Source: Escherichia phage vB_EcoM_DE16
Sequence record: OP595145.1
Reading direction: 5' to 3' (one strand)
DNA: 64,000 nt
Made by a program: the position numbers and the translations under genes. Positions 2,538 through 59,177 of the stretch are shown in pieces (the first letter of the stretch is position 1; every line of letters begins with the position of its first letter). A model generated the notes under the pieces. That model saw nothing but the letters and a program-made list of their open reading frames with translations, was not told the origin of the DNA and searched no databases.

Positions 2538-2747
2538 ATGTCAAATATGAAAACTGTATCCTTGTATTTAGCTAACACTGATCGTGTGCACACCCTTGCT
2601 AATGCAAGTCGTGTACTCGTGCAGTTCCGAAACTTCGCACCGTCCGTTGTGACAGGCAGTGAAACGTGTGTGATCGATTTCATCAATGAATATTTCCACG
2701 GGAATCCTGTTGCTCGTCACTTCGTGGAGAATATGAAAGATGCATAA
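2538..2747 (+). CDS. hypothetical protein (69 aa)
   Basis: ORF with SD TGAGGAG upstream. Confidence 0.5.
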   Translation: MSNMKTVSLYLANTDRVHTLANASRVLVQFRNFAPSVVTGSETCVIDFINEYFHGNPVARHFVENMKDA

Positions 2748-2970
2748 CATGAAACGTATGAAAATTCGTATTGAGAATGATGGTGGTTATAAAGGATTGG
2801 CACATGCAAAATTTCCACTTGTGTTGGAAGCTACAGTGGAATACAGTGGGCTTGCTCATGTGCGATTCTCGAAGATGATGGAAGTGCAGGAGTGGTTTTG
2901 GGACGAGATAGATGCACGAGAAGGGGAAGATTATGTTTTCTTTCCTCACGAATATGAAATCGTTTATTAA
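2740..2970 (+). CDS. hypothetical protein (76 aa)
   Basis: ORF co-directional, start overlaps previous stop. Confidence 0.45.
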   Translation: MHNMKRMKIRIENDGGYKGLAHAKFPLVLEATVEYSGLAHVRFSKMMEVQEWFWDEIDAREGEDYVFFPHEYEIVY

Positions 2971-2973
2971 AGG

Positions 2974-3222
2974 TTGTGTGCAATGATCACACCACAACAG
3001 AATGAAGCAGCAATGGATCTTCTTGATAGTTTGTATTTCGATAACTGGTACTCTGAATGTGAATGGATGAATATGCAAACTCTGAAAGAGAAGACAGAAG
3101 CGTTGATTACAGTAGATCAATTTCTTGCAGAGACGGAAAGAATGAATTATGATATGGCATCTCGCGCACGACGCGTTTCCATTTTCAATAAAATGTTAGC
3201 ATTATGGGGAGGTAGAAAATGA
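2974..3222 (+). CDS. hypothetical protein (82 aa)
   Basis: ORF, co-directional early block. Confidence 0.5.
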   Translation: MCAMITPQQNEAAMDLLDSLYFDNWYSECEWMNMQTLKEKTEALITVDQFLAETERMNYDMASRARRVSIFNKMLALWGGRK

Positions 3223-3680
3223 GACAATTCACTATACTGGCAGCTTATGTGCAATGTGTTCACGATTATGTTAGTGCTCATACAGGTGTGCTGGAAGTTA
3301 CCAGTAAAATTGAAGGTAATATGGGTACTGTCTGTGTGCAACATACTTTATCCAATGTGCCGTTTAAAGTGTTCACTGTTGTAGCTGCCGATTACAATCG
3401 TGTAGATGTGCGTTTCTTGGATCATAATTTTCGTAACGCACTAGATAATATCGAAGATTATCTTCCCGTGAAACCTTTGTCATTTCCACCGAGTCGTGCA
3501 AATAATGTAGTGACAAACCTTAATGAAAGGAATGTGGCTATGCACAAAAAAGTCCGTCAACTGAAAACGCTGATGGAAATGCAAGAAGAGATTGAAAAAG
3601 AATTGAAAGAAGATTTTGGTATGCTTCCAAAAGACGCTTTGAAATGGTATGATGAACTAGGAGGAGAAAGTTATGAATAA
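3219..3680 (+). CDS. hypothetical protein (153 aa)
   Basis: ORF with SD GGGAGG upstream, ATGA overlap with previous gene. Confidence 0.6.
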   Translation: MRQFTILAAYVQCVHDYVSAHTGVLEVTSKIEGNMGTVCVQHTLSNVPFKVFTVVAADYNRVDVRFLDHNFRNALDNIEDYLPVKPLSFPPSRANNVVTNLNERNVAMHKKVRQLKTLMEMQEEIEKELKEDFGMLPKDALKWYDELGGESYE

Positions 3681-3867
3681 AGGAACTACTGTATATTTAG
3701 TGACTAAGAACACCCCAGGTTGGAGCCAATGCAGCACTGTCCCTTACAAGATCTGTGCAACATTAGAACTAGCACAACGTGCAGAAGCAGAAGTGGATGC
3801 CATGCAATACAGCTATGGTGAGATCATTCCTTTTACTCTTGAACAAGAAGGAGCACATCATGTTTAA
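3673..3867 (+). CDS. hypothetical protein (64 aa)
   Basis: ORF with SD AGGAGG upstream. Confidence 0.5.
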   Translation: MNKGTTVYLVTKNTPGWSQCSTVPYKICATLELAQRAEAEVDAMQYSYGEIIPFTLEQEGAHHV

Positions 3868-4315
3868 AGTAGGGTTTACTTATAAATTCAAAAGCGTTGC
3901 TGACCAAGGAGATATGGCAACACATGACAAAGCAAATATTGCTGTTTGCCAAGCGATTGGAAACGAAGTTTTCAAAGTTATGAATACAGATGATAAGTAT
4001 GGTCATGTTCTTGAGTTTTATATCAATGGCACCCTCTATACAGCAGGTGTTACCCCAGGGTTTAATTCGTATACTTATTTGATTGATAACGAAGAATTTA
4101 AATATTTTGAAGAAGTAAAGGAGGAAACAATGGGTAAAGCAGAACCACAATGGCATGTTGTGATCGTAGGATCAGAGTGTGTAGATGTTTGTTCTAGTTT
4201 TGAAAAAGCTTCTGAAGTCGCTACAAAAGCTAAGAAGGATTATCCGTCAAAGACGGTTGAGATTTACGCTCGTGTTGCAGTAGCAAACGCCACAATCACT
4301 ATTGATAAGGAGTAA
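3860..4315 (+). CDS. hypothetical protein (151 aa)
   Basis: internal ATG at 3860 preceded by GAAGGAG; track ORF 3779 start lacks SD. Confidence 0.6.
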   Translation: MFKVGFTYKFKSVADQGDMATHDKANIAVCQAIGNEVFKVMNTDDKYGHVLEFYINGTLYTAGVTPGFNSYTYLIDNEEFKYFEEVKEETMGKAEPQWHVVIVGSECVDVCSSFEKASEVATKAKKDYPSKTVEIYARVAVANATITIDKE

Positions 4316-4320
4316 AGCCA

Positions 4321-4776
4321 ATGTTCAAAGAAGGTCATGTCTACCGTTTCCAGGATGAAGATTATATGCGACTATATTCTACCTTTGATAACAGTATTGC
4401 TGCTATCATTGGAGAGAATTTTTTCGAGGTGTTGAGCACTGATGCAAATGGTAATATCTTGTCAATTGTTGTGATAGGGAGAGACGGTATTATCACTGCT
4501 AGTGATGGGGATCGTTACATAATCAATTCTGCTCATATAGATTATTTTGTTGACGGTGGTATTCGTGGTGGTCGTGGAAAACCCCAAGAAGAACCTGTTG
4601 ATACAACAAAAGAAGAGTGGTATGTTGTAATGACTGATGATACCTGTATTTCTGGATTTGAAAGTTACGAAGAAGCTTTGAAAGAAGCAGCAGAGCATAA
4701 AATGGCTAATCCTACAGAAGAGGTTGAAGTTTATAAACGTTTGGTTGTTGCTACCATCGGCGTATCTTTTGTTTAA
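4321..4776 (+). CDS. hypothetical protein (151 aa)
   Basis: ORF with SD TAAGGAG upstream. Confidence 0.6.
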   Translation: MFKEGHVYRFQDEDYMRLYSTFDNSIAAIIGENFFEVLSTDANGNILSIVVIGRDGIITASDGDRYIINSAHIDYFVDGGIRGGRGKPQEEPVDTTKEEWYVVMTDDTCISGFESYEEALKEAAEHKMANPTEEVEVYKRLVVATIGVSFV

Positions 4777-4788
4777 AAGGGGAATGTT

Positions 4789-5226
4789 ATGTTTAAAGTT
4801 AATGCTGTTTACTGTTTCAAAAGTAAAGCTGCCTGTGAAGCTTTCTCTGTGATCTCTGATGAAAATTTCAAAATGGCAGCTTTGATTGAAGGGTCTTGTT
4901 TCCGCGTCGAAGATGTTAGTGAATCAGGGTCTGTTTGCTCATTGACTTTATTGGACAGCGGGGATATTATTGAAGCTGGACAGTATCCGTTCAGGAGTTG
5001 GGAGATATTGTTAGCTCGCGGAGAGCGTAACTTTTTTATGTGCGTGTCTGCGGGGGAAGTTGTGAAAGAAACTAAGGATGTTTCTGTTTACAATTCTGAA
5101 TTTATAAGTTATAGTGAGTATCAACATTTGGAAGGCATTGTTGGTCACTTGTTATCTCTGATTGACATTGAATGTGACTTGCCTGAATCATTGAAAGAAG
5201 AGTTGAAAGCATTAGATCTGCTGTAA
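4789..5226 (+). CDS. hypothetical protein (145 aa)
   Basis: ORF with SD AAAGGGG upstream. Confidence 0.6.
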   Translation: MFKVNAVYCFKSKAACEAFSVISDENFKMAALIEGSCFRVEDVSESGSVCSLTLLDSGDIIEAGQYPFRSWEILLARGERNFFMCVSAGEVVKETKDVSVYNSEFISYSEYQHLEGIVGHLLSLIDIECDLPESLKEELKALDLL

Positions 5227-5253
5227 TGTTTCGCACAACGAAAGGAGAATAAG

Positions 5254-5553
5254 ATGAATCTGACCGAACAGTTACGCCGTATTGCAAAAGAAGCTTCCTT
5301 CAACTTCCCTGTTGAAGAAGTGATCGAGACATGTTTTGCTGAAGCACGAGCGGGAAACTCTTCAAGAAATTTCACGCCATCTGATTTTGGTTTGGATAAT
5401 TCTCCTACTCATCCAGGGGAAATCTACAATCAGGTGAAGTGGATGGATGAAGCAGTAGCAATTCTTCGTGAGCGTGGGCTTATTGTTTATAAAGAAATGG
5501 ATCTGAACGGGGCATACGAGTGGATCACTATTGATTGGTCCGAGGTGAAATGA
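5254..5553 (+). CDS. hypothetical protein (99 aa)
   Basis: ORF with SD AAAGGAG upstream. Confidence 0.6.
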   Translation: MNLTEQLRRIAKEASFNFPVEEVIETCFAEARAGNSSRNFTPSDFGLDNSPTHPGEIYNQVKWMDEAVAILRERGLIVYKEMDLNGAYEWITIDWSEVK

Positions 5554-19673: not shown

Positions 19674-19946
19674 TTATTCTTCGTTAGATTGCGTCTCAGA
19701 CGCGTTAAATTCGGTTTCAGTACAACTTGCTAGGTAACTTATATTTTGCATCACTACAACTACAGGTGTTTGAAGTTTATCTTCTAGCCCCGCAGCCACT
19801 TGAGCCAAGGCATTATCAATATTTGATTTCCTAACGCCTGTTCCATGTCCTGTTGCCAAGTAAAGATTACCTTCCCCTTTTTGTGTAGCATTGGCAAAGT
19901 AGTAAACGTAATGTGCAAGGTAGTAATCACGGATTTCTTCAGTCAT
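19674..19946 (-). CDS. hypothetical protein (90 aa)
   Basis: ORF with SD TTAGGAGAA upstream on minus strand. Confidence 0.55.
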   Translation of the reverse strand: MTEEIRDYYLAHYVYYFANATQKGEGNLYLATGHGTGVRKSNIDNALAQVAAGLEDKLQTPVVVVMQNISYLASCTETEFNASETQSNEE

Positions 19947-19963
19947 TTTATTCTCCTAATAAG

Positions 19964-19984
19964 AAAGGGGCCGAAGCCCCTTGA
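19964..19984 (-). terminator. intercistronic hairpin GGGGCUUCGGCCCC (UUCG tetraloop)
   Basis: same hairpin recurs at 32064-32081 and 38233-38248, each just upstream of an SD. Confidence 0.55.
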
Positions 19985-19989
19985 GTGGT

Positions 19990-20805
19990 TTATTTGTTTA
20001 AGTGGTCTTCGACCATTTTAATGAAACCTTCATTGCTGAAGGCTGTTGCAGCTTTTTCTCGGTAAACAAAAACTCCACGATCTTCATAGAGAAGTGTTTC
20101 TTCGTAATTAACTCCAGGGTTAACTACAACCATTTTTGTACCCATACTAAGCGCAGGGAATAATTCCCAATTAAAATTGATAACTTGGTTTGAACATCCT
20201 ACTACTACAACCAAATCTTGCATGGTCAAAGTATCGAACAAGTGAGCCATATCTGCATACAAAGGTGCAGCCTCACCAAAAAATACAACATTAGGCTTCA
20301 CCCAGTTATAATCATCTATGTTTATACTATTGTAACCAATATCTACCAGTGTTTTGTAATCTCCAGGATGCATACGGTAAACTACTTCAGGAAGATATCC
20401 GTGTACGTGAATAACAGAATCTCTGTCTACACCTGCTCGCTCTAGTAGATCATCAACGTTTGTTGTCAAGTTTACTATTTGGTTAGGATATTCCTTAAAC
20501 CACTTTGCTATTTGAATATGTGCAGCATTAGGTTGTACATCTTTAAGCTCAACACGTCTTTTGTTATAAAATTCGTGTGTTTTGGCATACAAATCCATAC
20601 CGTTCTCGTCTACACCACCGACCACTGGAAGATCTGGAGATGTTCTAACACGATAACCTGCTTGGAAAGCTCCAATATCGCAGACCTCTTCTAAATCATA
20701 TTCTTCCCATAAAGCACGACCACTATCTGTGTCTGTTCTAAATGTTCGAATCCCACTGTCTGCACTTAAACCTGCACCGCTTACAAAAATCACTCGTCTT
20801 GGCAT
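19990..20805 (-). CDS. Sir2-family NAD-dependent deacetylase-like protein
   Basis: GAGLSADSGIRTFR (sirtuin NAD-binding motif) and downstream HVHG histidine; 271 aa. Confidence 0.65.
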   Translation of the reverse strand: MPRRVIFVSGAGLSADSGIRTFRTDTDSGRALWEEYDLEEVCDIGAFQAGYRVRTSPDLPVVGGVDENGMDLYAKTHEFYNKRRVELKDVQPNAAHIQIAKWFKEYPNQIVNLTTNVDDLLERAGVDRDSVIHVHGYLPEVVYRMHPGDYKTLVDIGYNSINIDDYNWVKPNVVFFGEAAPLYADMAHLFDTLTMQDLVVVVGCSNQVINFNWELFPALSMGTKMVVVNPGVNYEETLLYEDRGVFVYREKAATAFSNEGFIKMVEDHLNK

Positions 20806-21275
20806 TCTTCCTCCTCAAATGGATCATAAGAATTGTACTCGTAAGTATCATCTTCTGAAAATTCTACTTCGAAATAAATATCAAACTCTGCAAACAGACG
20901 TAGGATGTTAGACATGCTGTAATAATTATCGTAGGCAGATTCAGCTTCATAGTAAACATAAAGCAAATGGTTAGCCTTATCATCTTCCAAATATTTCCCG
21001 TCTGCATACGCATAGTCTGCATATGCTTTACCTGCATCTTCCACAAGAGAACGATCAAGCAGAGTAGGAAATGGTTTCTCTTTTTCTTTTAGTTTGCTCA
21101 CTAACCAATGTGCAATATCATTCCATTCTGCATCCATACCACTAAAGCAACTTGCTTCTTCTCCAAAAGAAGCTTCTCCTAAATCGCCACTAATACGAAT
21201 AACATTAGATGAATTATAGCCACACGTTTCACAATCAGAGTAACTATTATGCACATTGACATTTACTTGAAACAT
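20790..21275 (-). CDS. hypothetical acidic protein (161 aa)
   Basis: ORF in co-directional block. Confidence 0.5.
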   Translation of the reverse strand: MFQVNVNVHNSYSDCETCGYNSSNVIRISGDLGEASFGEEASCFSGMDAEWNDIAHWLVSKLKEKEKPFPTLLDRSLVEDAGKAYADYAYADGKYLEDDKANHLLYVYYEAESAYDNYYSMSNILRLFAEFDIYFEVEFSEDDTYEYNSYDPFEEEECQDE

Positions 21276-30059: not shown

Positions 30060-30752
30060 TTAAATAGCGGTTCCTTCGAAATCCGCCACATTTACGAGAT
30101 TAATATTTTCAGATTTAGAAGTCAAGTTGTTTTCTGCAACAGATTTTTCTTCAGTATCCGCCTCGTTACCTGCCACGTTACGAGGTTCTTCTTCACCGTA
30201 GGGATTACCGAATTTCAAAAGATTGATTAATTCTTCTTTGGAGAAGTTTTCTAAATCATCGTCTGTTAATTCAATAATCTCGTCTTGTTCTTCAATAAAT
30301 GTTTCACCACCAGAAAAAGCATCTCGCTTTTTAGCTACTTCCATAGCCTGTTCTGGTGTTGCCCCTGCATCAAGAGCAGCTAAAGCAAAGTCTGACCCGC
30401 TTCCTACCGCATAATATTCTTCATCAATCGGATATGCACGTGTTGGGTTGTTACCTTCGTGCAGGAAAATACGTCCGTCTGGATGAACAACAAGTGCAAT
30501 AAACTCTTCATCTTCTTTATCTGGATCAGAGTGAATCATCAAACCAGGGACAGCATCACGTGCTGCTTCGCACTGTAGATTTTGTTCAAACCATTGAAAG
30601 AAAGAAAGCACGGAGGTCAGACGACCAGCACCACCTACAAGGTAATCTCCAATTTTTCGGACCTTTTTGAAATTAATAGAATCTACACGTCCACCAAAAG
30701 TTACCTTACCGTCACTCAAAATCTTATTTTTGGTTGCAATAATTGTCGTCAC
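30060..30752 (-). CDS. HslV-like Ntn-hydrolase peptidase (proteasome beta-type) with acidic C-terminal extension
   Basis: N-terminus MTTIIATKN (Thr right after Met), KKVRK, VGGAGRLTSVLSFFQWFEQNL and AVGSGSDFALAA align with HslV landmarks. Confidence 0.6.
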   Translation of the reverse strand: MTTIIATKNKILSDGKVTFGGRVDSINFKKVRKIGDYLVGGAGRLTSVLSFFQWFEQNLQCEAARDAVPGLMIHSDPDKEDEEFIALVVHPDGRIFLHEGNNPTRAYPIDEEYYAVGSGSDFALAALDAGATPEQAMEVAKKRDAFSGGETFIEEQDEIIELTDDDLENFSKEELINLLKFGNPYGEEEPRNVAGNEADTEEKSVAENNLTSKSENINLVNVADFEGTAI

Positions 30753-32746: not shown

Positions 32747-33007
32747 TTACTCCGCAATTTGAGCCATGAGATCACGCAGTTCGGTAAAACCGCCTACGTA
32801 TGTTACCTCCCCGTTCACTTCAGACAGAATTTGTGGAAATGTGCGTGGAGGAACTCCGGTAAGATCAACAACTGTTTTAGTCATTGATTCTAAATCATAG
32901 TCTTGGTCAAGACTTAAATATTCAAACTGTTTATTGCGCATAGTCAATAGTTGTTTTGACATTTCACAAAATTGACAGTTAGGTTTACCAAAAATTACAA
33001 ATTCCAT
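32747..33007 (-). CDS. glutaredoxin-like protein (CxxC redoxin)
   Basis: 86 aa, FGKPNCQFC active-site motif. Confidence 0.7.
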   Translation of the reverse strand: MEFVIFGKPNCQFCEMSKQLLTMRNKQFEYLSLDQDYDLESMTKTVVDLTGVPPRTFPQILSEVNGEVTYVGGFTELRDLMAQIAE

Positions 33008-33849
33008 TACCTCTCCTTATTAAGTAATACTGCTAAAGACTGTTCAATACCTTTATTTAAATCTGATTTTGTAAGATAGTGACTGGTTACTAGTTGTGAC
33101 TTCACCGGACGTGCTGCTGGAGCATTATAGGTTGAAGCTGATACCGCCGATATCTTAACAGGTTCTGGCATCTGTGTCAAGATCTTTTCCGCAAACTCCG
33201 CCCAAGAAATAAGATGGCTTCCTGCAAAATGGTAAGTCTTAACAGACCTTGACCAACCTGTTTTTAATACTTCAAAAATAGCTTCTGCTAAATCTGGAGC
33301 ATATGTTGGACAAGATAACTGATCAGCAACAATAATAAAATCACGTTGTCCATCATTATAGCGAGACAACATGGTTTTTAGAAAGTTATTTCCAAATTCG
33401 CTATATACCGAGGCTGTTCGAATAATATATGCATTTGGGTTAACTCCTCGCACCATTTTTTCACCAAGTTCTTTCGTATACCCATAATTGTTTATTGGGT
33501 TAGGTGTAGTATCTTCAAAAATAGGATGAGAATAATTAAAAATATAGTCTGTGGAAATATGCACAAAATCAATTTTAAGTTTGCTGCACACTGCCGCAAT
33601 ATTTGCAGGGCCATAAGCATTAACAGCCAAAGCAGTAGCAAAATCTTGTTCGGCTTTATCTACAGCCGTATAAGCGGCGCAATTAATAACACCATCTACA
33701 TAATCTTCAACAATAGCGTTTCGCACAGCTTCAAAATTTGTAATATCTACACGTTCTTTAGGATAAATTAAAGATACATTTGCAGGAGCAACTTTACGTA
33801 AAGCTTGTCCCAGTTGTCCATTACCACCCAATACCAGATATGTTAGCAT
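33007..33849 (-). CDS. rmlD: dTDP-4-dehydrorhamnose reductase
   Basis: N-terminal LVLGGNGQLG Rossmann motif, length 280 aa, position in rmlBACD cluster. Confidence 0.75.
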   Translation of the reverse strand: MLTYLVLGGNGQLGQALRKVAPANVSLIYPKERVDITNFEAVRNAIVEDYVDGVINCAAYTAVDKAEQDFATALAVNAYGPANIAAVCSKLKIDFVHISTDYIFNYSHPIFEDTTPNPINNYGYTKELGEKMVRGVNPNAYIIRTASVYSEFGNNFLKTMLSRYNDGQRDFIIVADQLSCPTYAPDLAEAIFEVLKTGWSRSVKTYHFAGSHLISWAEFAEKILTQMPEPVKISAVSASTYNAPAARPVKSQLVTSHYLTKSDLNKGIEQSLAVLLNKER

Positions 33850-34409
33850 ACACCCTCGCTACGTAACTGTTGAAAAGATTTAGCCATTGCATCTTTTGTT
33901 GATAGGATAGGTTTAAAACCTTCATCAAAAATCATATCGAAGCCCCAATCGATCCCTATATCAGGATCATCCCAACGTAAACTTTGTTCACTAGAAGGGT
34001 CGTATGGAGTTGTGCATTTGTATTCAAAGATAGCATCCATACTCAAAACTATAAAACCATGTGCCAAACCAGGTGGAAGCCAAAACTGCGTATGGTGTCG
34101 TGCACGAAGAACAACACCGTCCCAAGCACCGTAAGTAGGACTATCTTTACGTAAGTCTACAGCGAAATCCAATACTTCACCACTTACACAACGAACAAGC
34201 TTACCTTGCGGATTATTTGTTTGAAAGTGCATTCCTCGCAAAACACCGAAGTTTGATTTAGACATGTTATCTTGAACGAAAGTTTGTCTACCAATAATAT
34301 CTTCGTATTTTTGTTCATTATATGTTTCTAAAAAGAAACCACGGTCATCTTTATAAACGTCTGGTTTGATAATTACCGCACCTTCAATTTTTGTTTTTTC
34401 TACTTTCAT
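33843..34409 (-). CDS. rmlC: dTDP-4-dehydrorhamnose 3,5-epimerase
   Basis: cupin-type RmlC region [12 protein letters not shown]; start at ATG 34409 overlapping rmlA stop (ATGA). Confidence 0.75.
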
Positions 34410-35284
34410 TTTCCCTCCGCTAATTTGAGTAGGTATTGCCCGTACTCTGTTTTCTTCAGTGAGTTTCCATGATAGACCAAAGTCTCTAAAGAAATCCACC
34501 CTTTTTTGAAAGCAATTTCTTCCAGGCACGCAATCTTCAATCCTTGACAGTTCTCAATAGTCTGCACGAATTGACCAGCTTCCATCAGACTGGCGTGTGT
34601 TCCTGTATCAAGCCAAGTAAATCCTCGTCCGAGAACTTCTACTTGTAACTTCCTGTCTTCGAGGTAGCTGCGATTGATATCGGTGATCTCCAGTTCTCCA
34701 CGCGCGGAAGGGGTTACTTCTAATGCACGTTGAATAACAGAGTTATCATAGAAATACAAACCTGTGACAGCATAATCTGATTTAGGATTTTCAGGTTTCT
34801 CTTCAATAGAAATAACTTGACGATTACTCCCAAATTCAACCACACCGAATCGTTCAGGATCTTTCACCAAACACCCGAAGATACAAGCTCCGCCCCAAAC
34901 ATCTACCATCTCACTAGCGTTAATCAGTAGTTTACCAAAGCTTTGTCCGAAGAATAGGTTGTCACCTAAAATAAGAGCAACAGAGTCTTCTCCGATAAAA
35001 TCTTTACCGATGATGAAAGCGTCCGCAAGACCTCGTGGCTCGGATTGGATTGCGTAAGTGAGTTTTATCCCAAACATAGACCCATCTCCAAGAAGATGCT
35101 CAAAGTCTTCCTGATCGCCTGGTGTGGTGATGATTAAGATATCCTTAATGTCAGCCAACATCAATACCGATAAAGGGTAGTAGATCATGGGTTTGTCATA
35201 CACAGGGAGCAATTGCTTGCTCACACTGCGTGTTACCGGATGAAGGCGGGTTCCACTTCCTCCCGCCAAAATAATACCTTTCAT
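34406..35284 (-). CDS. rmlA: glucose-1-phosphate thymidylyltransferase
   Basis: [11 protein letters not shown] ... [17 protein letters not shown] signature. Confidence 0.85.
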
Positions 35285-35292
35285 AACCCTCC

Positions 35293-36285
35293 TTAAATCT
35301 TCTCACTCCACCATTGAGGGTTGTTTAAGTACCATTCAATCGTTGAGTAGAGATCTTGTTCAAATGTAGAGTTTGCACTCCAACCCAGTTCAGACTCTAT
35401 TTTAGAAGGATTGATTTCATAACGCAAGTCATGTCCTTTACGATCTTCAACAAAAGTTATCAAGTTGGAAGAAGGGTAGGTTCCTGCTTCTGGATGTACA
35501 GCATCCATGTAGTCACAAACCATATAGATGATCTCCATATTGGTTTTGGGATTACGTGTTCCAACATTATACGTTTGACCTGGTTCTCCACCTGTTGCCA
35601 CTTGAAGAATAGCTCGCGCATGATCCTCAACAAAAAGCCAGTCTCGCACCTGATCGCCTTTACCATACACCGGAATCTCTTTATTCGTCAAGATACTTGT
35701 GATGATTTTTGGGATCAGCTTTTCTGGATGTTGATAAGGTCCAAAGTTATTGGAGCAGTTGGTTATCACAACAGGTAAACCGTAGGTACGGTACCAAGCT
35801 TTCACAAGATGGTCAGATGCTGCCTTAGACGCACTGTACGGGCTTGAAGGAGCATAAGCTGTCTCTTCGGTAAAGGGAACGCCAGAGTCTGCCATATCGC
35901 CGTACACTTCGTCTGTGGAGACGTGTACGAACATCTTCAGTTTATTTTTTGGGAGGAGCCTTGCAGCTTCCAATAAATTGTATGTGCCAATAATATTGGA
36001 GTCGATGAAAACTCGTGGATTCTTGATAGAATTATCCACATGACTCTCTGCCGCTAAGTGAATGATGAAATCGGGATTGCACTCTACTACTAAACTTTTG
36101 ACCTGGGTTTCGTTTGCCAAATCTGTTATGCTTAGTTTAACGTGAGTGATATCGCCTACATTCTCAATATCTGCTGCATAGCCCATCTTATCAACGACAA
36201 AAACTTCGTTATTGGGATCTTGACAAAGAGAGCGCACCACGGCACTCCCAATAAAACCAAGACCACCTGTTACCAGATAGCGCAT
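35293..36285 (-). CDS. rmlB: dTDP-glucose 4,6-dehydratase
   Basis: [10 protein letters not shown] Rossmann motif and YSASK catalytic Y-x3-K. Confidence 0.85.
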
Positions 36286-36294
36286 CAGTTCTCC

Positions 36295-36621
36295 TTACCA
36301 GACGTTTTGTGATACTAACGTTTCAGTTTCAATATGGTACTTCTCGTAGAGTTCGAAATAAATCTCATTAGCTTTTTTATCCAAACTTGTGAGGTCTATT
36401 GCCCGTGCGCTGCATCCTGACGCAAGTTCAATACCAAAGACACAATCTTCAGGATCTGCATCATACCACGGGGAGACACTCACTAACCCAATACCTTCGT
36501 AAAGAAACCAGTTGAAATCCCCATCGAATTGATCCTCAATCTGCGGATCGCCTTTAAACACTTCTTCCCATTTCTTATATGGTGCGCCTTGCACCATCTT
36601 CCATTCGATATCAATCCCCAT
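36295..36621 (-). CDS. hypothetical protein (108 aa)
   Basis: ORF in co-directional block. Confidence 0.5.
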   Translation of the reverse strand: MGIDIEWKMVQGAPYKKWEEVFKGDPQIEDQFDGDFNWFLYEGIGLVSVSPWYDADPEDCVFGIELASGCSARAIDLTSLDKKANEIYFELYEKYHIETETLVSQNVW

Positions 36622-38211: not shown

Positions 38212-38232
38212 TTAAAATTCTCCTCAATAAAA

Positions 38233-38248
38233 GGGGGCCGAAGCCCCT
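38233..38248 (-). terminator. intercistronic hairpin GGGGCUUCGGCCCCC
   Basis: between nrdA stop and nrdB SD. Confidence 0.55.
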
Positions 38249-38279
38249 TTACGTTTACCCTTCTTCACCTGTTCTCCTA

Positions 38280-41299: not shown

Positions 41300-42298
41300 T
41301 CACCATTTAGTATGATTTGTTAAAAGTTGACGATGTTGAATCCAACCTTTGAAATTGCCAGACCAAAACTTACCATTACGATCTACATGGGTAATACCTG
41401 GTTCCCAAGAGTTAAAATCCCAAGGAGCATTGATAAACAAATCTTCAAAACAGTTCTCTCCGTATTGTTCGCATGTTTCTTGCATTGGGGTGGCTTGATG
41501 TTCAAACGGAGAAGCATGAACCTTGCGCCCAGTTAGCAAACGACCATAAATATCTAAAGCTTTATCTTTAGTTGCATTCAAACGACGATAGCTAACCTGT
41601 GCACAACACGAAGCTGAAATAGCTTTAGCTTCTTCCAAAGTAAGCACAACAACTTCTCCAGATTCATCTTGAACATAGTATCCACCAAAAACAAAATGAT
41701 CGTCACCTTCTGTGCCAATATTATCATAGAAATGGTCTACATAAGGTGTGTGCCATTGCCCTGGTTTAAGCACTTCTGGTGTAGATTCTTCATACTCTTT
41801 GTGCATCTCTTTAGCCAAAGCTTCGATAGTAGGATCGGCTTCTTTGTCATCACGTAGCCACCAGAAATTTTCATATTCTGTTGCTGTCAGAACTGTTTTA
41901 ATTCGTTGGAAAGGTTCCAGAAGACGGTTTGCAACTTGTTTGTGGTACCCTGCCAAAGAGAATTCTTCTGCAAAACGTGCTGCACTAAGCGCGGCAAGAT
42001 CCCACCACTCTTGAGCAGTATAACCTGCATCAATAAGAGCGTCATGATCAACACCTTTATCCTGCATACCAGGTTGGTTAGCCCCAAAACGATAAGGACG
42101 AGCAGGCTGATTTCGCACCATTTCGATCAGTGTTTTAACAGGTATAGCACGGCTAGAAGCAGCGTTACGACTGAATAGGCGGTGAGTCATCAGTTCTGAA
42201 TGAATAATACGTGGATATTCAAGTTCGAAAGTTACAATCTCTTTTCCGTCTTCAGTGATGGAATGCGCAATAATACTAGCCGAAATCTGTTTTGTCAT
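41300..42298 (-). CDS. thyX: flavin-dependent thymidylate synthase ThyX-like
   Basis: THRLFSRNAASSRA fits the ThyX RHR-x7-S signature region; 332 aa (longer than typical). Confidence 0.65.
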   Translation of the reverse strand: MTKQISASIIAHSITEDGKEIVTFELEYPRIIHSELMTHRLFSRNAASSRAIPVKTLIEMVRNQPARPYRFGANQPGMQDKGVDHDALIDAGYTAQEWWDLAALSAARFAEEFSLAGYHKQVANRLLEPFQRIKTVLTATEYENFWWLRDDKEADPTIEALAKEMHKEYEESTPEVLKPGQWHTPYVDHFYDNIGTEGDDHFVFGGYYVQDESGEVVVLTLEEAKAISASCCAQVSYRRLNATKDKALDIYGRLLTGRKVHASPFEHQATPMQETCEQYGENCFEDLFINAPWDFNSWEPGITHVDRNGKFWSGNFKGWIQHRQLLTNHTKW

Positions 42299-57065: not shown

Positions 57066-57140
57066 GGCCCTGTAGCTCAATGGGAGAGCTGTCGGCTCAT
57101 AACCGATAGGTAGCTGGATCGAAACCAGCCAGGGCCACCA
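57066..57140 (+). tRNA. tRNA-Met/Ile2 (anticodon CAT)
   Basis: full cloverleaf: acceptor GGCCCTG/CAGGGCC, loop CTCATAA, encoded CCA; resembles lysidine-type Ile tRNA. Confidence 0.8.
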
Positions 57141-57142
57141 AC

Positions 57143-57217
57143 GTCTTTATGGTGTAATGGATAGCACAGGAGTCTTCTAAACTCTTAGTCAAGGTTCGAT
57201 TCCTTGTAAAGACACCA
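57143..57217 (+). tRNA. tRNA-Arg (anticodon TCT)
   Basis: acceptor GTCTTTA/TAAAGAC, anticodon loop CTTCTAA, T-loop TTCGATT, CCA. Confidence 0.8.
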
Positions 57218-57414
57218 GAATATTTTAACATGAATTAGCTCAAGTGATTTGAACCCCACTACTGATCATGGTGGCAGAGAATGAGGCAAGTATGTCAGAC
57301 ATTATAAACAAAGGCCACGGTTATATTAGAAGACATAGACGCTCGAAGAGCACCGTTCGTGGAGAACGGGGGTTGGTGGAGTCACCATTCATGGTAAAAT
57401 GTTTTAAAAAACTA

Positions 57415-57444
57415 TTGACAACAAACATTATTTTATGTTAGATT
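57415..57444 (+). promoter_or_regulatory. promoter AACTATTGACA-N18-TAGATT
   Basis: same conserved -35 context as 56826 and 58570. Confidence 0.45.
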
Positions 57445-57452
57445 ATAAGTAT

Positions 57453-57543
57453 GGAAGGGCAAATCGACGTGGCGACGAAAACGGTCTTGAAAACCGCCGA
57501 GCTTGAAAGAGCCTTGGGAGTTCGACTCTCCCTCCTTCCGCCA
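57453..57543 (+). tRNA. tRNA-Ser (anticodon TGA), type II
   Basis: acceptor GGAAGGG/TCCTTCC, loop CTTGAAA, long variable arm, T-loop TTCGACT, CCA. Confidence 0.7.
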
Positions 57544-57548
57544 GATTA

Positions 57549-57634
57549 GGTAGATTGGTGAAATGGTAGCCACAACAGTTTGCTAAACTGTAGTCGGAAA
57601 CGGCGTGTAGGTTCGAGTCCTACATCTACCGCCA
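57549..57634 (+). tRNA. tRNA-Ser (anticodon GCT), type II
   Basis: acceptor GGTAGAT/ATCTACC, loop TTGCTAA, long variable arm, CCA. Confidence 0.75.
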
Positions 57635-57764
57635 AGTTCTTTTTAATATAGCTTACTTTAATAGAGTAAACTTTCGGCAGATGGCCTCCACCATCTTACC
57701 GATACTTCATAGTTAGTGGTGCGAACACTGGCTATTTTAAAAAGAATTTAAATACTAGCATTTA

Positions 57765-57852
57765 GGTGAGTTAATTCCGTAGGGGTAGCGGGGCAGACTG
57801 TAAATCTGTTATCATTGCGATTCGGGTGGTTCGACTCCATCACTCACCACCA
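57765..57852 (+). tRNA. tRNA-Tyr (anticodon GTA), type II
   Basis: acceptor GGTGAGT/ACTCACC, anticodon arm GCAGA-CTGTAAA-TCTGT, CCA. Confidence 0.75.
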
Positions 57853-57858
57853 AATTAA

Positions 57859-57944
57859 GATGAGTTGGCTGAATGGTTTAAGCGGCGGACTGTTAATCCG
57901 TGTTCGAAAGAACGATATAGGTTCAAATCCTATACTCATCGCCA
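57859..57944 (+). tRNA. tRNA-Asn-like (anticodon GTT) with atypical 15-nt variable arm
   Basis: anticodon arm GCGGA-CTGTTAA-TCCGT matches Asn tRNAs, but GTTC-GAAA-GAAC hairpin inserted in variable region. Confidence 0.5.
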
Positions 57945-57951
57945 GAATTAT

Positions 57952-58028
57952 GGACTTGTAGAGTTAAGGTAAACCCCCAGTCGCCAAGAGGCTTCTGGAA
58001 TTGCAGGTATCGAATCCTGCCGAGTCCC
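57952..58028 (+). other. degenerate tRNA-like element
   Basis: 7-bp acceptor pairing and T-arm GCAGG ... CCTGC with 8-nt loop, but no canonical anticodon arm. Confidence 0.3.
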
Positions 58029-58034
58029 AGCTTT

Positions 58035-58109
58035 GCTCCTATAGTATAATGGCTATTACAACGGTTTTGTAATCCGTGGATCTCTGTTCGATTCAGAGTG
58101 GGAGCACCA
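58035..58109 (+). tRNA. tRNA-Thr (anticodon TGT)
   Basis: acceptor GCTCCTA/TGGGAGC, loop TTTGTAA, T-arm CTCTG-TTCGATT-CAGAG, CCA. Confidence 0.75.
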
Positions 58110-58569
58110 ACATAACAGGTAAGAACATTTAGGCTACTGAGAAATCATCCGAGGCAATCAGACCTATCTTCTGTTAAGTGTTCTTATCGTTGTGAAGAAA
58201 GCAAACTTATTGAATGTAAGCGGACGAAAGACATTCACTAACCTGTAGTAAGGTCGAGCCAAAGCGCGGTAATGAGTTCCGAGGTTAGTATTCACAACAC
58301 AACATTAAGAGCACTGTGATTGATCGTCGTATCCTGTGCACAAGGTCTGCTCGAAAGACAGTGTTCTTAGTATTGTGTTGATCACAAAAAGAGTTACCTG
58401 AAACTTGACCGGAGTAGGGTTGGATGGGGCAAAAGAAGAAGCGGCTCTCCCATCGACAGCAACGAAGAATAATATTTGACTTTGGTTTTGTATTATTTTA
58501 AGTTAGCTTACCGAACGTAGGGCTAGTCACCCAATGGGATACTCGTCACTGTCCCACTCAATAAAACTA

Positions 58570-58599
58570 TTGACAACCAATAGTAAAATGTAGTATAGT
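58570..58599 (+). promoter_or_regulatory. promoter AACTATTGACA-N18-TATAGT
   Basis: perfect -35 and 5/6 -10, just upstream of tRNA-Gly. Confidence 0.55.
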
Positions 58600-58610
58600 A
58601 AAGATGTAGG

Positions 58611-58684
58611 GCGTTCTTGGTGTAGCGGTAGCATTCCGTCCTTCCAAGTCGGCGGCACGAGTTCGATCCTCGTAGAACGCTCCA
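58611..58684 (+). tRNA. tRNA-Gly (anticodon TCC)
   Basis: acceptor GCGTTCT/AGAACGC, loop CTTCCAA, T-arm ACGAG-TTCGATC-CTCGT, CCA. Confidence 0.7.
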
Positions 58685-58782
58685 AATTATTTAATAAAGG
58701 GTTGCCAGAAAACTTTCTCTTTTACTCATGGTTTTCTCCTTCTCTCACACCTCTTCTGGTTGCCCTTCATTAAATGATTTAT

Positions 58783-58858
58783 TGGTTTGTAGTGTAGTCA
58801 GGTAGCACACGACACTTTGACTGTCGTAGGTTTGGTTCAAATCCAGACAGACCAGCCA
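58783..58858 (+). tRNA. tRNA-Gln (anticodon TTG)
   Basis: U1-A72 acceptor TGGTTTG/CAGACCA, anticodon arm CGACA-CTTTGAC-TGTCG, discriminator G, CCA. Confidence 0.8.
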
Positions 58859-58863
58859 TATAA

Positions 58864-58940
58864 CGGAATTTAGCTCAGTTTGGTAGAGTGTACGCTTTGG
58901 GAGCGTATTGTCGCAGGTTCGAATCCTGCAATTCCGACCA
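58864..58940 (+). tRNA. tRNA-Pro (anticodon TGG)
   Basis: acceptor CGGAATT/AATTCCG, anticodon arm TACGC-TTTGGGA-GCGTA, CCA. Confidence 0.8.
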
Positions 58941-58946
58941 ATTAAA

Positions 58947-59020
58947 TGTTTCGTAGTTCAATGGTAGAACCCACGACTGATAATCGTGAGACACAAGTTC
59001 GATTCTTGTCGAAACAACCA
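58947..59020 (+). tRNA. tRNA-Ile (anticodon GAT)
   Basis: acceptor TGTTTCG/CGAAACA, D-stem GTTC/GAAC, anticodon arm CACGA-CTGATAA-TCGTG, CCA. Confidence 0.75.
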
Positions 59021-59022
59021 GT

Positions 59023-59092
59023 TTCCCGTTAGACTTACAGGATAAGAGTTCCACAGCTTATTGTGATGCTGGTTCGAATCCAGCACGGGATA
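59023..59092 (+). other. degenerate tRNA-like element
   Basis: canonical T-arm GCTGG-TTCGAAT-CCAGC and acceptor pairing but no canonical anticodon arm; too short for full cloverleaf. Confidence 0.3.
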
Positions 59093-59098
59093 CCTAAT

Positions 59099-59177
59099 AG
59101 CGGGATAGAGGAGTCTGGTCGTCCTCGCCAGTTTCATATGCTGGAGATCATTGGTTCAAATCCAATTCCCGCCTCCA
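59099..59177 (+). tRNA. tRNA-Met (anticodon CAT), 1-72 mismatch
   Basis: D-stem GAGG/CCTC, anticodon arm CCAGT-TTCATAT-GCTGG, T-arm ATTGG-TTCAAAT-CCAAT, CCA; A1 opposite C72. Confidence 0.65.

Follow-up and report, generated by a model that had tools for sequence, protein, structure and literature searches.

Blocks of rml genes are known from phages of the subfamily Stephanstirmvirinae. The four genes have been annotated by enzyme name since the phAPEC8 record (JX561091) and then in more than 40 further GenBank records, and they have been discussed by Olsen 2020, Maffei 2021, and Vitt 2024; the cluster was therefore already known. We analyzed such a block in a 64,000-nucleotide stretch of Escherichia phage vB_EcoM_DE16 (record OP595145.1; the whole stretch is called the window below), in which an earlier note, made from the sequence alone, had described a complete deoxythymidine diphosphate (dTDP)-L-rhamnose pathway at positions 33007–36285. 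The block has the same genes, order, strand context, and annotation as the published ones (phAPEC8, ESCO13, TSP7_1, and phi92-like phages). The shared context comprises ribonucleotide reductase (RNR) alpha, RNR beta, small open reading frames (ORFs), the rml genes, glutaredoxin, lysozyme, and PhoH. Essentially no difference separates the window from these blocks, and about one-third of the records, e.g. ESCO37, are without rmlB-rmlA.

To this knowledge our analysis adds new context: the link to a conserved cluster of four glycosyltransferases outside the window, the division of the operon into a core (rmlC-rmlD) and an accessory part (rmlB-rmlA) that is missing from natural two-gene variants, the placement of RmlB and RmlD in clades specific to phages, and a weighing of the acceptor hypotheses against published defense-system phenotypes. 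We lean toward reading the rml block as a working operon of auxiliary metabolism in a lytic Phapecoctavirus, one that would feed glycosyltransferases acting on an acceptor other than bulk DNA.

Results

All four genes were found as contiguous ORFs on the minus strand in the order rmlB, rmlA, rmlC, rmlD. They encode a dTDP-D-glucose 4,6-dehydratase (rmlB, 35293–36285, 330 residues), a glucose-1-phosphate thymidylyltransferase (rmlA, 34406–35284, 292 residues), a dTDP-4-dehydrorhamnose 3,5-epimerase (rmlC, 33843–34409, 188 residues), and a dTDP-4-dehydrorhamnose reductase (rmlD, 33007–33849, 280 residues). The motifs quoted in the earlier note were each recovered in the translations, e.g. YSASK in RmlB and LVLGGNGQLG in RmlD. 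Each protein scored above the cut-off of its NCBIfam equivalog (RmlB, 429.8 bits against TIGR01181, cut-off 365.1; RmlA, 461 bits against TIGR01207, cut-off 360.65; RmlC, 225 bits against TIGR01221, cut-off 155.75; RmlD, 236.7 bits against TIGR01214, cut-off 224.05), with E-values from 1e-67 to 1e-139, well outside what chance would give. RmlD was the sole marginal pass of the four.

Alignment to enzymes of known structure showed that the catalytic residues are retained. RmlB, aligned to Salmonella RmlB (1G1A; E 7e-111), keeps GGxGFIGS, the Thr-Asp-Glu triad (STDEVYG), and the Tyr and Lys of YSASK. RmlA, aligned to 4HO0 (E 8e-124), keeps WLDTGT and carries the family motifs GGxGTRL, K(SKQ), GDN, EEKP, and LDTG. 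In RmlC, aligned to 1DZR (E 3e-56), His63 (LRGMHFQ), Lys73 (QGKLVRC), Tyr133 (FEYKCT), and Asp170 (STKDA) are retained, as are GGNGQLG, STDY, and the Tyr and Lys of YGYTK in RmlD, aligned to 3SC6 and 1VL0 (E 2e-44). Ratios of nonsynonymous to synonymous substitution (dN/dS, Nei-Gojobori method), calculated against the divergent Phapecoctavirus phiWec188, were 0.05 for rmlB, 0.04 for rmlA, 0.22 for rmlC, and 0.12 for rmlD. The rml genes are under strong purifying selection and are maintained, not decaying. The complete RmlB-RmlA-RmlC-RmlD pathway described earlier thus stands, with all four enzymes above the equivalog cut-offs; inactive enzymes with mutated catalytic residues, raised in the earlier note as a sign against it, are not what we found, since all residues checked were intact as far as the sequence tells. 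Enzymes of these families convert glucose-1-phosphate and dTTP to dTDP-glucose, then to a 4-keto-6-deoxy intermediate, and finally to dTDP-L-rhamnose. Judged by these features, the phage pathway very probably makes dTDP-L-rhamnose.

The genes are tightly coupled, as had been noted. An 8-nucleotide spacer with a GGAGG Shine-Dalgarno sequence separates rmlB from rmlA, rmlA and rmlC overlap by 4 nucleotides (ATGA), and rmlC and rmlD overlap by 7; the rmlD stop overlaps the start of the following glutaredoxin-like gene by 1 nucleotide. A Shine-Dalgarno sequence of the GGAG type is present before each rml gene. A longer rmlC ORF starting at GTG and reaching 34529 was rejected as mechanical, the true rmlC start being the ATG at 34409. 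The block lies inside a long minus-strand gene array extending from ∼56 kb to ∼19.7 kb, at the ends of which the GC skew changes sign. Consensus scans of the 31–41-kb region gave 35 promoter matches (28.5 ± 5.1 in shuffled controls) and 7 terminator matches (6.2 ± 2.5 in shuffled controls). Because neither count was above the controls, no operon boundary was assigned.

The window comes from a Phapecoctavirus (a phAPEC8-like myophage of the Stephanstirmvirinae) and represents a further isolate of a known group. The rml block is 99.7% identical to that of Dompiswa phage TSP7_1 (MW175890) and 99.4% identical to that of Escherichia phage ESCO13 (KX552041), to which window coordinates in the rml region are related by an offset (window = ESCO13 − 39). 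More than 60 independently sequenced Phapecoctavirus records, including phAPEC8, carry the block in the same position at 98–99.7% nucleotide identity, and its synteny is kept in more than 130 phage genomes. Megablast of the block against 5,426 complete E. coli genomes gave no match, indicating that it is phage DNA, not host DNA. Its location in host DNA, the other objection considered in the earlier note, is thus contradicted by these genomes and by the more than 130 syntenic phages.

Several records with related sequences bear host labels that look doubtful: MG065650, MG065656, and MG065689 (“Campylobacter phage B15/C3/A110a”) and OR584014 (“Pseudomonas phage PsgM04F”). B15 and PsgM04F are 94–99% identical in nucleotide sequence to E. 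coli Phapecoctavirus genomes, and for C3 and A110a the protein-level matches are to Justusliebigvirus. These records may represent contaminant or mis-assigned isolates.

Homologue clusters of RmlB and RmlD were collected by a search of 5.8 billion proteins. The best 23 RmlB clusters were 62–94% identical and 329–331 residues long (apart from one 315-residue fragment), and where long contigs exist they lie on phage-sized contigs of 143–157 kb; bacterial RmlB homologues reached at most 58% identity and were 351–357 residues long. For RmlD, about 50 clusters at 51–98% identity form a clade, the longest contigs of which are also phage-sized (113–157 kb), and cellular homologues, mainly Bacteroidota-like, reached at most 45% identity. 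By sequence comparison, RmlB and RmlD form phage-only clades well apart from the cellular enzymes. Justusliebigvirus PaulScherrer (phi92-like; MZ501100), a member of the sister genus, has identical synteny (RNR alpha, RNR beta, small ORFs, rmlB, rmlA, rmlC, rmlD, glutaredoxin, endolysin, PhoH), its Rml proteins being 55–71% identical in amino acid sequence to those of the window. Taken together with the phage clades, this synteny indicates that the rml operon is old and vertically inherited in the subfamily. Recent capture of the genes from an E. coli host was rejected on the basis of the phage clades and the lack of an E. coli genome match.

Within the block, two modules could be distinguished. 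The G+C content at third codon positions (GC3) was 0.40 for rmlB and 0.41 for rmlA, 0.25 for rmlC, and 0.22–0.25 for rmlC-rmlD, with a mean of 0.30 ± 0.05 for the minus-strand genes of the window. Against phiWec188, RmlB and RmlA were 90% and 97% identical and RmlC and RmlD 63% and 66%; the phiWec phages thus carry a divergent rmlC-rmlD allele, 63–66% identical to that of the window. When the glutaredoxin-like gene is included, the downstream segment has a GC3 of 0.22–0.29 and is 63–76% identical to phiWec188. The drop in both identity and GC3 at the rmlA-rmlC overlap (34406–34409) indicates a recombination breakpoint at this point.

The two modules also differ in distribution. DNA of rmlB-rmlA was found in 47 phage records and RmlD at at least 95% identity in 64; among records named “Escherichia,” tblastn summaries, from which all record counts were taken, gave 87 for RmlA and 106 for RmlD. 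About one-third of Phapecoctavirus genomes lack rmlB-rmlA and carry rmlC-rmlD only. The two-gene arrangement of ESCO37 was pointed out by its authors (Trotereau 2023). In that genome rmlC-rmlD directly follows a 108-residue ORF that in the window lies upstream of rmlB. Every E. coli has the enzymes RffH and RffG, which act in the synthesis of enterobacterial common antigen (ECA) and supply dTDP-4-keto-6-deoxyglucose; many E. coli strains are without rmlC and rmlD. We reasonably infer that rmlC-rmlD is the conserved core that the phage cannot do without and that rmlB-rmlA is an accessory, compositionally distinct module, which would act as a booster because the host already makes the 4-keto intermediate.

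The earlier note had recognized no glycosyltransferase in the window, and tblastn of the four glycosyltransferases of relatives against it indeed gave nothing better than E = 1. Searching the rest of the genome, as had been proposed, was rewarding in the closest relatives. The fully annotated relative EF1-1 has four adjacent glycosyltransferase genes at 112.3–115.4 kb, beside primase/helicase and DNA polymerase genes; in the closest relatives the cluster lies ∼75 kb from the rml block. The four proteins of EF1-1 are 99–100% identical to those of TSP7_1, to which the window is most closely related, and are syntenic in PaulScherrer at 66–77% identity. From these 99%-identical relatives we infer that the OP595145.1 genome should also carry the four genes outside the window.

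Two of the four are GT-B paralogues with 42% mutual identity and near-threshold matches to Pfam profiles of the Glyco_trans_1 type. The others are a 227-residue GT-A enzyme (GT227), in which FDDD and YGxED are invariant across 17 homologue clusters, and a 187-residue GT-A-like protein (GT187) with a DTD motif. No transmembrane segment was detected in any of the four (maximum 19-residue Kyte-Doolittle average, ≤1.65), and sequence-profile searches of the GT-A and GT-B families against PDB sequences gave nothing significant. The AlphaFold model of GT227 showed a confident GT-A fold (predicted local distance difference test score (pLDDT), 89.5). A fold search with this model against PDB and BFVD confirmed the GT-A fold and did not discriminate the acceptor; the best PDB template modeling (TM) scores were just ∼0.4–0.5 (STIV A197, vaccinia H3, collagen glycosyltransferases, TarP, and GalNAc-T).

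GT227 and RmlD occur in equal numbers of records, 106 named “Escherichia” for each and 64 each at at least 95% identity, and both are present in the same Klebsiella and Citrobacter relatives; for neither protein was an rV5-like Vequintavirus among the matches listed. An independent hint came from a distant phage on a 135.5-kb Logan contig (SRR24146891, positions 2667–5319), where a divergent RmlB-like NDP-sugar dehydratase (171 bits against TIGR01181, below the cut-off) lies directly upstream of a GT227 homologue, followed by a GT-B homologue, primase/helicase, and PolA. This arrangement hints at a link between a sugar-nucleotide enzyme and the glycosyltransferase cluster.

Beside the glycosyltransferase cluster of EF1-1, at 116.8–127.3 kb, are TerD, TelA, vWA-TerF, and SprT genes, with a phosphoribosyltransferase-like gene and hydrolases nearby. 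A Ter gene set, here with a TerC gene, is also found beside the glycosyltransferase cluster on another contig (L009, 453–8061). The combination of Ter and phosphoribosyltransferase-like genes resembles the “Ter-dependent” systems predicted to make a nucleoside-like metabolite.

With respect to the immediate neighbors of the rml block, the earlier description requires correction. The genes had been placed directly next to RNR and ThyX; RNR beta is 840 nucleotides upstream, separated from rmlB by four small ORFs, and the ThyX-like gene (41300–42298) is ∼5 kb upstream. The ORF directly upstream of rmlB (36295–36621, minus strand, 108 residues) belongs to phrog_15453, of unknown function. It is found in ESCO37, phiWec188, and PaulScherrer, stands upstream of rmlC in the two-gene variants, and has a GC3 of 0.42, resembling rmlB and rmlA; its single-sequence AlphaFold model was unusable (pLDDT, 46.9). 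Downstream of rmlD, the glutaredoxin-like gene (32747–33007, minus strand) matched glutaredoxin models weakly, below their cut-offs, and is syntenic in ESCO13, ESCO37, and PaulScherrer. It probably serves the neighboring RNR rather than the sugar pathway.

Further features of the window were recorded. The intergenic region between nrdA and nrdB (38212–38279) is empty save for a terminator-like GC hairpin (38247–38234, minus strand); the same gap holds a 339-nucleotide ORF in ESCO13 and a 633-nucleotide HNH endonuclease gene in EF1-1, which marks it as a variable insertion site for homing endonucleases. Ten tRNA genes (Met twice, Arg, Ser, Asn, Thr, Gly, Gln, Pro, and Ile) lie on the plus strand at 57066–59177, just past the strand switch near 56 kb. 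Sir2-like genes (19700–20850, minus strand) stand at the start of the minus-strand array, and a gene for an HslV-like peptidase (30060–30752, minus strand) lies near PhoH; both are conserved accessory genes unrelated to rml.

Discussion

We propose the following mechanism for the rml block. RmlA would activate glucose-1-phosphate with dTTP, RmlB would dehydrate the product to dTDP-4-keto-6-deoxy-D-glucose, RmlC would epimerize this at C3 and C5, and RmlD would reduce C4 to give dTDP-L-rhamnose. The activated sugar would then pass to the four soluble phage glycosyltransferases (a pair of small GT-A enzymes of the DxD type and the two GT-B paralogues), which would use it to assemble a glycan containing rhamnose. 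The acceptor of this glycan would be something other than bulk DNA: most likely proteins, of the phage virion or others, and less likely a glycolipid of the host envelope. That phage dTDP-rhamnose feeds the phage glycosyltransferase cluster is probable, and the acceptor is most likely not bulk DNA. Virion glycosylation, host surface remodeling, and DNA modification had all been left equally open before; the first two stay as candidates, and bulk DNA has become the least likely of the three because of the phenotypes of sister-genus phages discussed below.

A virion protein as the acceptor can be proposed only tentatively. Glycosylation of the virion or of other proteins is our favored guess. 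The best fold matches of GT227 are viral and protein-modifying GT-A enzymes. By sequence, GT227 matched phrog_1579 (E 1e-12) and, in tblastn, 327 Mycobacterium phage records at 25–28% identity over ∼130 residues (cluster F glycosyltransferases). Maravista-type F1 mycobacteriophages are related to Che8, the capsid of which is glycosylated. Several observations weigh against the mechanism as proposed. The homology of GT227 to the mycobacteriophage proteins is distant, covers mainly the nucleotide-sugar-binding half, and is little informative on the acceptor. Both gene sets lie in nucleotide-metabolism and replication arrays and not in the structural module, a placement expected for DNA modification. 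The co-occurrence of rml and glycosyltransferase genes largely reflects a single vertical inheritance event and is thus weak statistical evidence. RmlD is only marginally above its cut-off, and a C4-epimeric product, e.g. 6-deoxy-L-talose, is compatible with its sequence. In the searchable literature on these phages we found no measurement of enzyme activity, sugar product, or glycoconjugate, and no functional study of rhamnose. On the other side, viruses with 6-deoxyhexose nucleotide pathways of their own (chloroviruses and mimiviruses) use them for virion glycans.

Remodeling of the host envelope is the strongest alternative, though an unlikely one even when its two versions are taken jointly. 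Rhamnose could be added to the lipopolysaccharide (LPS) core, to ECA, or to an undecaprenyl-linked precursor, or RmlC and RmlD could drain dTDP-4-keto-6-deoxyglucose from ECA synthesis. Either route would mask the receptors of the phage itself, so that superinfection would be excluded and fewer progeny would be lost to cell debris. This would fit the receptor biology of the group: relatives need surface glycans, waaC and waaG mutants with a defective LPS core are fully resistant, and ECA was proposed as a primary receptor (Maffei 2021). GT-A and GT-B enzymes of such general type typically build envelope polysaccharides, and among the fold matches are TarP, a teichoic-acid glycosyltransferase encoded by a prophage, and GT25 enzymes of the LPS type. 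In addition, the substrate of RmlC and RmlD is the branch-point intermediate of ECA Fuc4NAc synthesis. However, the four glycosyltransferases have no transmembrane segment, and no flippase, polymerase, ligase, or partner of the GtrA/GtrB type is annotated in EF1-1. A strictly lytic phage with a short infection cycle would have little time for outer-membrane turnover, and no seroconversion phenotype was reported in the papers examined. O-antigen modification of the Gtr type was considered and excluded because its membrane components are absent: there is no transmembrane glycosyltransferase, and neither Gtr-like genes nor an integrase is annotated in EF1-1 or ESCO13. Action of soluble enzymes on LPS core or ECA precursors is possible.

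DNA hypermodification, in which the phage glycosyltransferases would transfer rhamnose to a modified base, e.g. a hydroxymethylated pyrimidine, and protect against nucleases as the glucosylated hydroxymethylcytosine of T4 does, is improbable. DNA glycosylation was proposed for the rml genes by Olsen 2020, repeated by Vitt 2024, and agrees with the position of the rml genes between RNR and glutaredoxin and of the glycosyltransferases beside primase and DNA polymerase. GT227 also matched the TET-associated glycosyltransferase (TAGT) family PF20691 (E 1e-3, 19.4 bits, below the cut-off of 27.5) and phrog_842, a beta-glucosyl-HMC-alpha-glucosyltransferase (E 1.4e-5 over 38 residues), and TAGT-domain proteins appeared in the viral fold search at TM 0.45–0.49. 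These weak matches are, however, sub-threshold and confined to the nucleotide-sugar-binding motif, and GT227 resembles the TAGT proteins in fold no more closely than it does GT-A enzymes in general. Of the four glycosyltransferases, three are acidic overall.

The defense phenotypes, which come from phages of the sister genus and not from Phapecoctavirus, argue in the same direction. Maffei 2021 described phi92-like phages, which carry orthologues of the rml and glycosyltransferase genes, as “exceptionally susceptible” to restriction-modification systems. In Picton 2021, two phages of Justusliebigvirus, Pau and PATM, which we matched by name to records LR865361 and OX090893, were restricted ∼10^7-fold by the bacteriophage exclusion (BREX) system and were not among the phages sensitive to BrxU, a type IV enzyme that cleaves DNA containing modified cytosine.

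A source of the modified base was also looked for. No ThyA-type hydroxymethylase or TET/JBP gene is annotated in EF1-1, a genome annotated by profiles and structures in which many ORFs have unknown function, and the sole hydroxymethylase candidate is the divergent ThyX-like gene on the minus strand upstream of the rml genes. Its product matched Pfam Thy1 with 35 bits over part of the profile and had no PDB sequence match at E ≤ 0.01; it may represent a distinct phage-specific branch of flavin-dependent thymidylate synthases. The gene is common to 1,034 phage records, including rV5-like, ICP1, PAK_P1-like, and N4-like phages, most of which are without rml genes and these glycosyltransferases. 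Because of this distribution in more than 1,000 phages, a role for the ThyX-like protein as a hydroxymethylase dedicated to a rhamnose-DNA pathway was rejected. Taken together, the evidence against DNA glycosylation is fairly strong. A narrower version, in which rhamnose or a short rhamnose glycan would be placed at sparse or sequence-specific sites as a new hypermodification with a dTDP-6-deoxyhexose donor, is slightly less probable still; such a modification would need to be so rare that it left the restriction, BREX, and type IV systems examined to date unhindered.

It is very unlikely that the pathway, through a divergent RmlD-like reductase or RmlC-like epimerase, ends in another 6-deoxyhexose, such as dTDP-6-deoxy-L-talose or a mono-epimerized sugar. 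RmlD is just 12 bits over its equivalog cut-off and at most 45% identical to any cellular RmlD, and the short-chain dehydrogenase/reductase family to which it belongs also holds reductases with a C4-epimeric outcome. Nevertheless, the RmlC and RmlD equivalogs gave the best scores with no competing family above threshold, and both proteins retain the residues that are catalytic in true RmlC and RmlD. Readings of the block as DNA of the host or of a prophage, as a chimera of the assembly, or as a functionless decaying remnant have nothing positive in their favor beyond the slightly higher G+C content of rmlB-rmlA and the phages without these two genes, and they are already refuted by the lack of E. 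coli genome matches, the identical position in independently sequenced phages, the phage-specific clades, the intact ORFs and catalytic residues, and dN/dS values of 0.04–0.22.

In a widespread group of broad-host-range coliphages used in therapy and biocontrol studies, strong selection maintains four glycosyltransferases and an activated-sugar supply of the phages' own, and the purpose of the rml cluster is an experimentally tractable question. Clean genetic handles are offered by the core of rmlC-rmlD and the glycosyltransferases and by the natural variants without rmlB-rmlA. If the target is the virion, these would be the first glycan-decorated coliphages; in phage therapy, such decoration would matter for the stability of the particles and for their recognition by antibodies. 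An envelope or DNA target would imply a new exclusion or anti-defense mechanism.

Outside the Stephanstirmvirinae, the block is closest to the bacterial rml/rfb operons (Salmonella and E. coli O-antigen) and to RffH/RffG, with which it shares the same four enzyme families, inferred chemistry, and catalytic residues. It differs in lying in a lytic phage amid nucleotide-metabolism genes and not in a polysaccharide locus with flippase and polymerase, and its enzymes are distinct, with a compact RmlB of 330 residues (≤58% identity to the 351–357-residue bacterial forms) and an RmlD at ≤45% identity. The DNA glucosylation system of T-even phages (dCMP hydroxymethylase and alpha/beta-glucosyltransferases using host UDP-glucose) has served in the literature as the model for the rml genes (Olsen 2020), and it likewise has its glycosyltransferases among early, replication-type genes. 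In the present phages, by comparison, no hydroxymethylase was found, the donor would be a phage-made dTDP-6-deoxyhexose, and phages of the sister genus, unlike T4, are hit by restriction and BREX.

The remaining comparison is with virion glycosylation. The cluster F mycobacteriophages (Che8) also encode their own glycosyltransferases, to which GT227 is distantly homologous. Compared with Che8 and the giant viruses, the Stephanstirmvirinae system is known from its genes alone and has its glycosyltransferases outside the structural module. Giant viruses encode both a 6-deoxyhexose nucleotide pathway and the glycosyltransferases that it supplies for capsid or fibril glycans; the donor there is UDP-L-rhamnose, made by a two-enzyme route, whereas the phage rml genes represent the four-enzyme dTDP route.

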